DNA of 64,000 nucleotides. Origin: Candidatus Bathyarchaeia archaeon. GTDB taxonomy: Archaea; Thermoproteota; Bathyarchaeia; 40CM-2-53-6. The notes beneath the pieces are model-generated. The model was not told where the DNA came from. It saw nothing but the letters and a program-made list of their open reading frames with translations, and searched no databases. The number at the start of each line of letters is the position of its first letter. Position 1 is the first letter of the stretch. Made by a program: the position numbers and the translations under genes. Shown in pieces: positions 18,414-64,000 of the stretch. The DNA is taken from assembly GCA_050013255.1 (NCBI GenBank), contig JBEKFP010000001.1:416001-480000 (forward strand). Direction: 5' to 3'.

Positions 18414-18773
18414 TCACAGCCGTGGAATGTGGACTTCAAGGACGCCCCGTTTGAACTTCGTGCTAATTCTTTTCTCGTCAACGGAGACGGGCATGCGGAT
18501 TCTGGCACGGTAACATGTGAATTCCCCATGCCTGTGCTTGGCGCCGAGGTCCCTGAACGTGATCTTCTTGTTGGTCTCTGCATAAACTTCCAAGGAATCA
18601 TCCGTCGGGCAGCGCAGCTTAACCTGTTTGTGGTCCACGTATGGTAAATCGACGGTTAGAACGACCTCGTTGGCCGCCACGTACAGATTGTATAGAGGTT
18701 GGATGCATGCAGCGGCAGCGTTCCATCCTGACCCATGGGTGGAGAATTCGCCTTTCGGTTCAGGACTCACCAT
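18414..18773 (-). CDS. Hsp20/alpha-crystallin family protein
   Basis: VVLTVDLPYV, FKRGVLEVHIP. Confidence 0.75.
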   Translation of the reverse strand: MVSPEPKGEFSTHGSGWNAAAACIQPLYNLYVAANEVVLTVDLPYVDHKQVKLRCPTDDSLEVYAETNKKITFRDLGAKHRHGEFTCYRARIRMPVSVDEKRISTKFKRGVLEVHIPRL

Positions 18774-18776
18774 GGT

Positions 18777-19538
18777 TCACCCGTACATAGGCGGGAGATC
18801 GTATTCATGAGACTTGTCCATCTTGAGCATCTCTTCGTGGGTACGGTGCATCATATCCTTACTTTTCAAGCGTATTTCTTCCCCTCTCTTCAGAAGGTCG
18901 GAAACGTCAACATTCAGATCGAGTATCTTGTTGACCGCGCTTATCGCAACCGCGGCTGCTACAGGGTCGGGGTAGTTGTAGTAGGATTGGGTAAGCAACG
19001 TGATTGCGGGAACGGATGCTTCAGCACATTTCTGGAGGATTAGCCCGTAAACGCCAACTATGTAACCTTCCTCCAAGACTTCAGCCGCCCCGCGAAGCCT
19101 CGACTCCAATTCCTTACTTGAAAGCGCGGCAAACACTTTTGGGGCATCTATGTCCTGGCGGTTCGCAACAGCCATCCCACCCAAGGAGAGCATCAGCTTA
19201 GTATTCTTTGTTCGAGCCCAGTCAACGATATCCGCCGCAAGTGGCCTGATGAGTGGGACTGGGATCGTTGTCTCAGAGATTAGGACAACCAAAGAGTTGC
19301 CTGCGAATATGCGGATAGGTGCTTTCGGAAGGCCGCCGTGCAGAACGATCATTGGTGGAAGAAGGTCAGACTCGATAGCGCCCACCTCCTTCAATTTCAA
19401 TTCGCTAATGATATGAGAAGCCGCCAGCAACCCGACAAGCCCTACATCGGGAAGGCCGTTCACAATAACCGCCCCCTTAGGAATCGAAGCGGATTCCAAA
19501 ATGCGCAACCCATCTTTCCCAGACAGGCTATTGGACAT
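18777..19538 (-). CDS. Proteasome assembly chaperone PAC2 family (PbaA/PbaB-like)
   Basis: GLPDVGLVG, YPDPVAA, C-terminal HbYX-like MYG. Confidence 0.88.
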   Translation of the reverse strand: MSNSLSGKDGLRILESASIPKGAVIVNGLPDVGLVGLLAASHIISELKLKEVGAIESDLLPPMIVLHGGLPKAPIRIFAGNSLVVLISETTIPVPLIRPLAADIVDWARTKNTKLMLSLGGMAVANRQDIDAPKVFAALSSKELESRLRGAAEVLEEGYIVGVYGLILQKCAEASVPAITLLTQSYYNYPDPVAAAVAISAVNKILDLNVDVSDLLKRGEEIRLKSKDMMHRTHEEMLKMDKSHEYDLPPMYG

Positions 19539-61593: not shown

Positions 61594-62196
61594 TTAAAGT
61601 TCCAAGTCAATCTGCTCGACGTAGGAGAGATCCTCGCCACAGTATGGACAGAGTTTGAACGTTCTATCAACTTTCTTCCCGCATTCAGGACATTCGACCT
61701 TGAATGGGTACCTGCAGAAGGGACAGAGTGCAAAGTCAGCTGCAACTCTGCGCCCGCATTTCTTACACAGTTGTTCACCGCTACTATCTGCAACATGTGT
61801 TGGGTGCTCCGGACCTTGAATGATGACTGGTAAGGGCTGTCCGGAACCGGAACTCGAGTCTCGAACGATATTTTCACGAAGAATACGGTGAAGTTGGAAT
61901 GCGTCAGGTTTTGCCAGGTTACCAACCTTGATGCTTTGTACTCCTGACCGCATTAGAATTTCGATGCTGGCCCTGCGGACTCCTCGGTCAAGTTTGATGT
62001 TGACCATGTTAGAATAAGGATAATCAACGAAGCTTTTCTTCAGCCCCAATCCGCCTGTTTTGCGAATTATGATACGCTGGTCGCTGACGACCACCGTCTC
62101 GCTGCCGCGTAGGACCCAGATGACTTTCTCATCATAGTTGATGAGGTGTTTCATGTCCTCCGGTACTGGTAGCGTTCCCAAATGATGGAGCCTCAT
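61594..62196 (-). CDS. Bacterial-type PH domain + double zinc ribbon protein
   Basis: VSDQRIII...DYPYSNM PH-like region; four C-terminal CxxC; start at ATG 62196. Confidence 0.75.
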   Translation of the reverse strand: MRLHHLGTLPVPEDMKHLINYDEKVIWVLRGSETVVVSDQRIIIRKTGGLGLKKSFVDYPYSNMVNIKLDRGVRRASIEILMRSGVQSIKVGNLAKPDAFQLHRILRENIVRDSSSGSGQPLPVIIQGPEHPTHVADSSGEQLCKKCGRRVAADFALCPFCRYPFKVECPECGKKVDRTFKLCPYCGEDLSYVEQIDLEL

Positions 62197-62362
62197 GTAA
62201 CAGCGAACCGTTGAGCGCCTTTTGATGATAAGATGTATTGCACTACAGTACAAAAAAACCTGGTAAATATAGGAAAGAAAACGACCCAGACAATGCAATT
62301 TCACACGCCATCACCAAGTTGAGTTAAGTATGTTCAACTTGCCTAGTTGGTGGTAGATTGCT

Positions 62363-62749
62363 ATGGAAATGAATGAGGCGACAATGGAGGTAAACTCCAG
62401 AACTTTCAGAGTGAACTATTCGGGGCTTGAGAACGCTGTTATAGCCTTCTTCTTTGAAGATCGGATGCGCTTAGGAACACTCGCCATCGCTATGCCTGGG
62501 ATGGATGAGGTCGCTGTTGGCCGCTCTTCTGTCCTTGTCGGTGGAAAATATCTCATGACGAGTCGAGCCTTGGCGGAGAGGCTCGCCGGAAAGAGTGGAA
62601 GGATCGCGCTCGTATCACTATTCACGGAGCTTGATGAGGCGGAAGCGTTTCGGATATACGCAAAACTTCTTGAAAAGGTACAATTGGGAACTCAAAGCGC
62701 AGAGAAGTCTTTGCGGCCTAACAGATCAATACGACAAAACATTGGATAG
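62363..62749 (+). CDS. Proteasome assembly chaperone 4 (PSMG4)-like protein
   Basis: LGTLAIAMP...SSVLVG...SRALAERLAGKSGRIALVS pattern; GGTGG SD-like sequence upstream. Confidence 0.6.
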   Translation: MEMNEATMEVNSRTFRVNYSGLENAVIAFFFEDRMRLGTLAIAMPGMDEVAVGRSSVLVGGKYLMTSRALAERLAGKSGRIALVSLFTELDEAEAFRIYAKLLEKVQLGTQSAEKSLRPNRSIRQNIG

Positions 62750-64000
62750 TGGCGATTCTCCCAGAACCTTAATCGCGGCCTCAGTTACTCGTTCCCTGTA
62801 TTCTTCTTTAGTGTATACGCGAATTATGTTCATGAACACTCGAAGGTCATCCACGACCTTCGAGAGCTCGGTTATCTTCTGTGGTACCTTTTCACCCAAA
62901 CGGTTCCTTGAGAAAATTGGTATGTCGATTGGGCCGATGTCCATAGCGTAATGATATGGTACGGACGGAAGGGAGGGAACGTCAATTCCGACATCTGACA
63001 AGGGGACCTTTGCTTTGGCGGCGATATCCTCCTCGAGTTTCAGCCGCACGTTTTCGTTGGTGAATACGCTTGAGACGAGTTCATCCTTAGCAAAGAAGGT
63101 TCTCTCGTAAGCGCATTTCAGAAGTCTCCTTTCGGATAGCTCCCGTATGATTTGTCGGGATCTTGGATTCAATAACAGTTTCGACCAAACTGTGTAATCA
63201 TCCCATTCCATGTACTCGTCTGGAGTTTTCACCTTGAGAATTTCAAGATCTTCTTTAGCCGCGTCCAAGGCTTTGAGCATCATCATTTGAACTGCTCTGC
63301 AGGCACGGTGGAAGTAGATAGCCCTGAATGACTCGAGCCGAGCCAAGATGAGGCTCTCAAGGGTAGGGAGTGCGGTTATGTCAACTGCTAAGTTGCCGTC
63401 CAAGATGTCCATCGTGTATATCAGCCGAAAAACATCGACCGATCCATAACCTGCCCCAGTATGGTAGGAGTCTCTAACGACAAAATCCATCTTGTCGACG
63501 TCGAATGAACTGCTGATTATTTGGCCAAGGAATCGCTTCCCGGGCTTGGAATGTTTGCCGACAGCAAGGTTGCTTAATTCCTTAGCATCAAATCCTTGTT
63601 CCTCGATCACTTCACTCAAGCTTGAGTTGGCGATGATCCAAGTCGACATGTCCTCGTGGTTCCGCCCAAGATATTTGAGGAGGAAGGGTTCGAAGAGGTG
63701 TGAAAAGGGAGCGTGCCCAACGTCGTGCAATAAAGCAGCCAGACGCACTTTCTGTTTTTCGTCGGCTGAAAGCTCCGTCGGAATATTCTCAGCGACTACA
63801 CCTGCAAGGTACATAGCCCCTAGAACGTGTTCGAACCGAGTGTGGTTTGCAGCTGGGTAGACATACTCTGCCCCCGCGAGTTGCCTAATCCTTCGTAGCC
63901 TCTGAACAGCGAGGGTATCGATGACGTTACGTTCAATCTCGGTTAAGCGAATGTAACCGTAAACGGGATCCTTGATGAAACCCCAATATTTCTCTTGGTT
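62726..64000 (-). CDS. HD-domain phosphohydrolase (SAMHD1/dNTPase-like); 5'-partial
   Basis: Frame open to the window edge: KDPVYG, QRLRRIRQL, HTRFEHVLG, LLHDVGHAPFSH, DVDKMDF.RD. Confidence 0.92.
   Translation of the reverse strand, partial: NQEKYWGFIKDPVYGYIRLTEIERNVIDTLAVQRLRRIRQLAGAEYVYPAANHTRFEHVLGAMYLAGVVAENIPTELSADEKQKVRLAALLHDVGHAPFSHLFEPFLLKYLGRNHEDMSTWIIANSSLSEVIEEQGFDAKELSNLAVGKHSKPGKRFLGQIISSSFDVDKMDFVVRDSYHTGAGYGSVDVFRLIYTMDILDGNLAVDITALPTLESLILARLESFRAIYFHRACRAVQMMMLKALDAAKEDLEILKVKTPDEYMEWDDYTVWSKLLLNPRSRQIIRELSERRLLKCAYERTFFAKDELVSSVFTNENVRLKLEEDIAAKAKVPLSDVGIDVPSLPSVPYHYAMDIGPIDIPIFSRNRLGEKVPQKITELSKVVDDLRVFMNIIRVYTKEEYRERVTEAAIKVLGESPLSNVLSY

Follow-up and report, generated by a model that had tools for sequence, protein, structure and literature searches.

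A PAC4-like protein of Bathyarchaeia, related to LpdD and linked in relatives to the decarboxylase of the archaeal mevalonate pathway, as a candidate prFMN chaperone

The archaeal mevalonate pathway is characterised by the steps of PMDh and of anhydromevalonate phosphate decarboxylase (AMPD), which depends on prenylated FMN (prFMN). LpdD is, to our knowledge, the sole prFMNH2-binding chaperone described so far. In Lactobacillus plantarum, LpdD forms a dimer of the Pba3/4 fold (PDB 8po5) that binds prFMNH2 and activates apo-UbiD in experiments; it is genetically associated with UbiD/UbiX systems and, according to its authors, seldom lies beside UbiD (PMC10865409). Metal binding is not essential in LpdD, and the metal has been proposed to contact the cofactor phosphate (PMC10865409). 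Another pair of accessory proteins, PhdC/YclD, raises the yield of active holo-UbiD enzymes and has the fold of the HpaC-like flavin reductase family (PMC13040415). In M. mazei, the genes for PMDh and AMPD adjoin (MM_1524-1526; PMC12547664).

In this study, we analysed a stretch of 64,000 nucleotides (the window) from the genome of a Candidatus Bathyarchaeia archaeon, in which an earlier reading made from the sequence alone (the sequence-only reading) had pointed out a protein resembling the human proteasome assembly chaperone PAC4/PSMG4. Our preferred explanation, to which we give a probability of roughly 0.6, is that this protein is an LpdD-like prFMN chaperone or accessory protein for AMPD. 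The features of the window that bear on the question are:

62363..62749, + strand: PAC4-like gene (ORF, family alignment, Pfam, AlphaFold2 model and fold matches)
62726..64000, - strand, running past the window: HD + HD_assoc_2 phosphohydrolase-like gene (Pfam)
18777-19538, - strand: PAC2-family gene, PbaA/PbaB-like (PF09754, E 1.5e-42)

A conserved archaeal protein related to PAC4 and LpdD

The ATG-started ORF at 62363-62749 encodes 128 amino acids and contains the peptides quoted in the sequence-only reading. It is a genuine conserved gene. In a collection of 5.8 billion proteins, 493 match its product at E<=1e-3, many of them at 70-99% identity and equal length and, where a source is named, from Candidatus Bathyarchaeia; searched exhaustively, 1.84 billion cluster representatives yielded 79 clusters, and the start methionine coincides with the start of the homologues in the family alignment. 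In this alignment of 52 diverse members, N24, G38, and G60 are invariant, A25, T39, S55, A71, E72, and S85 are kept in at least 90%, and a basic residue is kept at R/K36, R/K62, and R/K68; the window's protein contains no histidine at all. The family profile finds a single copy in the genome. With the 128-aa protein alone, neither NCBIfam nor a phmmer search of the PDB gave any match. One cluster member carries the label Chitinophagaceae, and a Bathyarchaeia-type member lies on a 1.5-kb contig (L164, JAUZRP010000108.1) inside a MAG labelled Desulfonauticus sp.; neither is likely to be a bacterial homologue, and contamination during binning is the probable cause of both.

The resemblance to PAC4 was confirmed, and the protein is a distant relative of human PAC4 whose similarity goes beyond chance. 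Pfam PAC4 (PF16093) matches the single window protein at E 7.9e-4 with 19.8 bits, which is below the gathering score of 31 bits, and it matches 42 of the 52 family members at E<=0.01 (best E 2.2e-8); a Nitrosarchaeum orthologue scores 33.7 bits, and Nitrosopumilaceae members lie above the cut-off. Searched against the PDB, the family profile found chains of human PAC4 (E 2.2e-7 and 3.5e-7) and nothing else at E<=10, LpdD not being among the matches. The human PSMG4 motifs that the sequence-only reading had cited agree with the PDB sequence 5wtq_A in the HMMER alignment (...HLRNLAVAMSSRYDSIPVSTSLLGDTSDTTSTGLAQRLARKTNKQVFVS...). In the Pfam searches that it had suggested, the window's protein matched PAC4 below the cut-off, and the genome gave only a chance-level match to PAC3.

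Structural comparison gave a broader answer. The AlphaFold2 model (pLDDT 89.9) shows that residues 4-103 form the PAC3/PAC4/LpdD fold of six beta strands and two helices; the C-terminal tail that follows (residues 105-128) is lineage-specific and predicted poorly. The best Foldseek match is human PAC4, chain M of the human 20S assembly intermediate 8qyj (TM 0.65/0.73, 22% identity), and PAC3 and LpdD rank after it. An independent structural aligner placed the model on PAC3 (2z5e, Z 12.9) and on one chain of Pba3-Pba4 from yeast (2z5b, Z 12.7), and the comparison with LpdD (8po5_A) gave Z 11.9 and an rmsd of 2.6 A over 107 aligned residues (Foldseek E 6.8e-5). The Z scores of PAC3, Pba3-Pba4, and LpdD, at about 12-13, are well above those of all other structural matches. 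The protein therefore has the PAC3/PAC4/LpdD fold and is by sequence closest to PAC4, but the fold by itself cannot decide between involvement with the proteasome and a function like that of LpdD. The sequence-only reading had named a best match to LpdD-like proteins only as a result that would speak against it; the fold in fact matches PAC4, PAC3, and LpdD, and it is the linkage to UbiD/AMPD genes, described below, that points to the LpdD-like side.

By sequence, the connection to LpdD runs through other archaeal proteins. The Pfam family PF21758, named PAC_bac in the copy that we searched and LpdD_chaperone in Pfam 38.1, does not match the window's protein at E<=10, and it matches five of the 52 family members (best E 7e-8). 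When the profile of the PAC4-like family was compared with archaeal PF21758 proteins by hhalign, the probability was 96% (E 2.9e-9), and these archaeal proteins, used as a profile, found LpdD of L. plantarum (6e-16) and human PAC4 (0.02). By these comparisons, LpdD, the archaeal PAC4-like family, and PAC4 make up one superfamily in which the archaeal PAC4-like family is the bridge. The PF21758 model also matches Methanosarcina acetivorans, which served as a control genome, and archaeal LpdD homologues seem to be absent from the discussion in PMC10865409.

In the one sampled lineage that carries LpdD, the two families do not overlap in distribution. In a six-frame search, PF21758 was found above its cut-off in 30 of the 32 genomes of one family of the phylum (f22) and the PAC4-like family in none of the 32, so that LpdD-family genes stand in place of PAC4-like genes in this lineage. 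The same search gave no PF21758 match in Nitrosopumilaceae or in the window's genome and only sub-threshold matches in Bathyarchaeia, at least three of which fall on the PAC4-like gene itself. The archaeal PF21758 proteins retain the PHIG and HKD motifs with both histidines. In the PAC4-like protein, the His35-His61-Asp63 metal site of LpdD aligns by hhalign to R36, K62, and L64; across the family, the two histidine positions hold R/K36 in 43/52 and R/K62 in 50/52 members, and the position of the aspartate is hydrophobic and variable.

Gene order around the PAC4-like family

The genome has a single UbiD gene. It lies outside the window, 268 kb from the PAC4-like gene, in an operon on contig C1 whose genes overlap or almost abut over C1:745804-749275:

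C1:745804-746385: ubiX
C1:746373-747674: UbiD (AMPD), between ubiX and PMDhL
C1:747690-748880: AcnX-type PMDh large subunit (PMDhL)
C1:748871-749275: PMDh small subunit (PMDhS)

Since the UbiD gene sits in a ubiX-UbiD-PMDhL-PMDhS operon, its product is AMPD, an assignment based on this conserved context together with established knowledge of the pathway. The order of the genes agrees with that of the PMDh and AMPD genes MM_1524-1526 in M. mazei (PMC12547664). A second AcnX copy is present at C3:182029-183210.

Gene order is the decisive evidence on the function of the PAC4-like protein, and it shows that the recurrent co-directional partner of the gene is this UbiD-family decarboxylase of the mevalonate pathway. 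We examined 89 loci across the phylum (23 from Nitrososphaeria and 66 others) and a second sample of 80 Bathyarchaeia loci, 74 of them assessable, that was picked by a sequence motif and is biased to one subclade. A same-strand UbiD gene lies immediately downstream of the PAC4-like gene in 46 of the 89 phylum-wide loci, usually with a 4-nt stop/start overlap at the junction. The arrangement is found in all 23 Nitrososphaeria loci (22 Nitrosopumilaceae and Nitrosocosmicus) and in 23 of the other 66, mainly Bathyarchaeia, where 20 of the pairs abut; in the second, subclade-biased sample it is found in about 49 of the 74 loci. Depending on the sample, about one third to two thirds of the Bathyarchaeia loci lack the adjacency. 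The UbiD so paired is the orthologue of the genome's only UbiD (34-44% identity); a second UbiD copy of Nitrosopumilaceae is 25% identical to it. Some loci hold more of the pathway, in the order PAC4-like>AMPD>PMDhL>PMDhS (L064 and L066) or PAC4-like>ubiX>AMPD>PMDhL>PMDhS followed by an HD gene (L109). The homologous LpdD-type genes of archaea have a link of their own: in 12 of the 14 loci examined (L202-L215; 11 from f22 and three from other families), the PF21758 gene stands tail-to-tail with ubiX. Searches with the single protein and with the family alignment found no fused PAC4-like/UbiD protein, which counts weakly against the preferred explanation.

These data also bear on the possibility that the gene encodes some general small beta-sandwich dimer whose role is a different one and whose linkage to AMPD is inherited synteny. 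The neighbours of the gene in the window are unrelated housekeeping genes, and weak homologues from Hermodarchaeota (P0185 and P0216) lie between the genes for rpS30 and a peptidase M50 and do not adjoin UbiD, as might be expected of such a protein. Nevertheless, the stop/start-overlapping adjacency is kept across Bathyarchaeia and Nitrososphaeria while all other neighbours change from locus to locus (HhH-GPD glycosylase, Clp1-type kinase, Sua5, XPD helicase, NAC, and PUA proteins), and an independent homologous family, that of LpdD, is linked to ubiX. We therefore regard this possibility as very unlikely. A scan of the genome contigs with the Hermodarchaeota protein P0216 found no relatives.

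In the Nitrosopumilaceae loci L077-L098, a conserved ORF of ~80-200 aa precedes the PAC4-like gene by about 17 nt and is co-directional with PAC4-like>AMPD. It has an invariant CGYRLRTKPRNLKYKAKLRARVEAD segment and lysine-rich repeats and no Pfam match; as a candidate PAC3-like partner (149 aa), it was rejected because the hhalign probability was below 1%.

The distribution of the family was determined among 401 genomes of the phylum, of which the family profile matches 126. It is present in about 54 of the 60 genomes of the window's class, in all 56 of Nitrosopumilaceae (f16, which includes Nitrosarchaeum koreense, Nitrosopumilus sp. K4, and Nitrosotenuis) and in 8/8 and 4/4 genomes of two further families (f23 and f28), whereas no match was found in eight other well-sampled families; an f60 genome is that of Nitrosocosmicus. 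Co-occurrence with UbiD is uninformative, because UbiD was found in 369 of the 401 genomes. Many Thermoproteota families have AMPD and neither a PAC4-like nor an LpdD-family gene, and the function must therefore be dispensable or replaceable. In the lineages that have neither of the small families, the region upstream of AMPD yielded no divergent homologue (best HMM E 0.66).

In the window itself, the PAC4-like gene is separated from AMPD. Its 3' end overlaps by 24 nt that of the convergent HD gene, which in full spans G000:C1:478726-480015 and encodes 429 aa. In five other sampled genomes of the same order, AMPD likewise lies elsewhere, and four of the five retain the PAC4-like/HD pair; overall, 23 of the 89 loci have an HD gene next to the PAC4-like gene. 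The HD gene closes the L109 cluster and follows AMPD>PMDhL>PMDhS in lineages that have no PAC4-like gene (L194, L195, L197, and L198), and for this reason the pair looks like the two ends of an old cluster from which AMPD and PMDh moved to ubiX. The HD protein could be a phosphohydrolase tied to the archaeal mevalonate pathway, a role that is predicted from these positions. The divergent upstream neighbour (61594-62304, - strand) codes for a bacterial-PH-domain protein that carries a double zinc ribbon at its C-terminus; no such gene was seen in the related neighbourhoods.

PAC2, PAC4 and the proteasome

The sequence-only reading had proposed that two chaperone classes may assist 20S assembly in this archaeon, the PAC4-like protein acting alongside a PAC2-family protein. 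It was right about the PAC2-family gene at 18777-19538, whose product ends in ...PPMYG, an HbYX-like Met-Tyr-Gly C-terminus. C-termini of the HbYX type are used for docking on proteasome alpha rings. The gene is 43 kb from the PAC4-like gene and unrelated to it in context; a 119-aa ORF (18414-18773, - strand) adjoins it.

The presence of this gene in the window, the significant sequence similarity to PAC4, and the top Foldseek match to human PAC4 in an assembly intermediate would all be consistent with a PAC4-type 20S assembly chaperone that acts on alpha-ring formation. So would the names in public databases: RefSeq calls relatives such as the Nitrosarchaeum orthologues "proteasome assembly chaperone 4", and the premise that archaea scarcely have PAC4 is outdated at the database level. 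The count of alpha paralogues that the sequence-only reading had suggested gave a different picture, since a single alpha gene and two beta genes are present, and one alpha gene leaves no subunit order to enforce. The genome also has no PAC3-like partner and no paralogue of the PAC4-like gene, Pfam PAC3 giving nothing better than a chance-level match to a 48-aa frame (E 0.43). No proteasome gene was found in the about 170 neighbourhoods of PAC4-like genes examined, whereas AMPD is adjacent in roughly half of them. Furthermore, human PAC4 does not keep the G38, T39, and R/K62 of the archaeal family in the HMMER alignment, and the family was not found in most of the other Thermoproteota families of the sample, even though proteasomes occur throughout the archaea (PMC13022661). 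Taken together, these results make a role in 20S assembly highly improbable, and the proposed cooperation of both chaperone classes does not hold for this genome. The name "proteasome assembly chaperone 4" is probably a functional misnomer in archaea.

A candidate cofactor chaperone and its known relatives

On our preferred explanation, the PAC4-like protein would take the reduced prFMN made by UbiX and either deliver it to AMPD or stabilise it for AMPD. It may work as a homodimer, and it may stay bound to AMPD. The basic residues R/K36 and R/K62, which stand in place of the two metal-binding histidines of LpdD, might contact the cofactor phosphate directly. Several findings count against a chaperone role of this kind: the window's protein lacks the H35/H61/D63 site of LpdD, the sequence of the family resembles PAC4 more closely than LpdD, and the gene is not next to AMPD here or in the five other sampled genomes of the order. 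The Bathyarchaeia loci that lack the adjacency and the many Thermoproteota families that have AMPD alone count against it as well. Since the protein lacks tested features of both Pfam families, we file it as a variant of the LpdD kind and as a member of neither. A literature search in an incomplete library found no paper that ties PAC4-like or LpdD-like proteins to archaeal AMPD.

Some bacterial UbiD enzymes have small D subunits, and the PAC4-like protein might by comparison be a stoichiometric small subunit of AMPD or a factor for its oligomer assembly, with the PAC3/4-type beta-sandwich as a scaffold and no cofactor binding of its own. The operon evidence serves this explanation equally well, PAC3 and PAC4 are themselves protein-assembly scaffolds, and the metal site of LpdD has been lost in the family. 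Translational coupling, as is usual among the subunits of a complex, is suggested by the 4-nt overlap, and such an overlap would fit a chaperone no less than a stoichiometric subunit. However, AMPD orthologues (41-44% identity) occur in other Thermoproteota without the partner, and the AMPD of M. mazei is functional in E. coli when only UbiX is supplied (PMC12547664). The nearest characterised prokaryotic relative binds the cofactor (PMC10865409), and in the lineage that carries LpdD, the gene of this family is linked to ubiX, which encodes the cofactor synthase, and not to AMPD. We consider a subunit role unlikely for these reasons and a prFMN chaperone or accessory protein the better explanation.

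The PAC4-like family, as a sister family of LpdD, is near-universal in Bathyarchaeia and Nitrosopumilaceae and, by the overlapping junctions, appears to be translationally coupled to AMPD. If the preferred explanation is true, cofactor hand-over would be a regular part of archaeal lipid-precursor synthesis, and the PAC4-like protein is a candidate addition to bacterial reconstructions of the ATP-saving archaeal mevalonate pathway. The archaeal family bridges LpdD and PAC4 by sequence, which opens the origin of PAC3/PAC4 in eukaryotes to testing. A wider proposal is that the archaeal "proteasome assembly chaperone 4" proteins are metal-site-free cofactor chaperones of the mevalonate pathway and that PAC3/PAC4 were recruited from an ancestral archaeal prFMN/UbiD maturation factor; we put it forward as tentative, and the two parts together are rather doubtful.

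Of the known systems, LpdD is like the PAC4-like protein in fold and similar in size, and the two are homologous at the profile level through the archaeal LpdD-family proteins. Both are genetically linked to UbiX/UbiD, which for the PAC4-like protein is true of the family and not of the window's genome, and their distributions do not overlap, f22 having LpdD only and Bathyarchaeia and Nitrosopumilaceae the PAC4-like family only. They differ in that the His-His-Asp metal site of LpdD is Arg/Lys, Arg/Lys, and a hydrophobic residue in the PAC4-like family, in that the partner is AMPD rather than an aromatic-acid decarboxylase, and in that the PAC4-like gene usually lies directly upstream of UbiD rather than beside ubiX. 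The PhdC/YclD prFMN maturases are likewise accessory proteins encoded in UbiD/UbiX operons, but their fold is unrelated, and they act by catalytic oxidative maturation and not by binding of the reduced cofactor. PAC4/PSMG4 (PF16093; 5wtq and 8qyj chain M) is the nearest family by sequence and has the same fold, and human PAC4 and the archaeal family have in common the motif pattern LA-A-(M/L) ... S-LLG ... LA-RLA-K...VS. Compared with PAC4/PSMG4, PAC3/PSMG3, and yeast Pba3-Pba4, however, the archaeal protein belongs to a genome that has no PAC3 partner and a single proteasome alpha gene, its gene has no genomic tie to the proteasome, and the operon partner is a metabolic enzyme.
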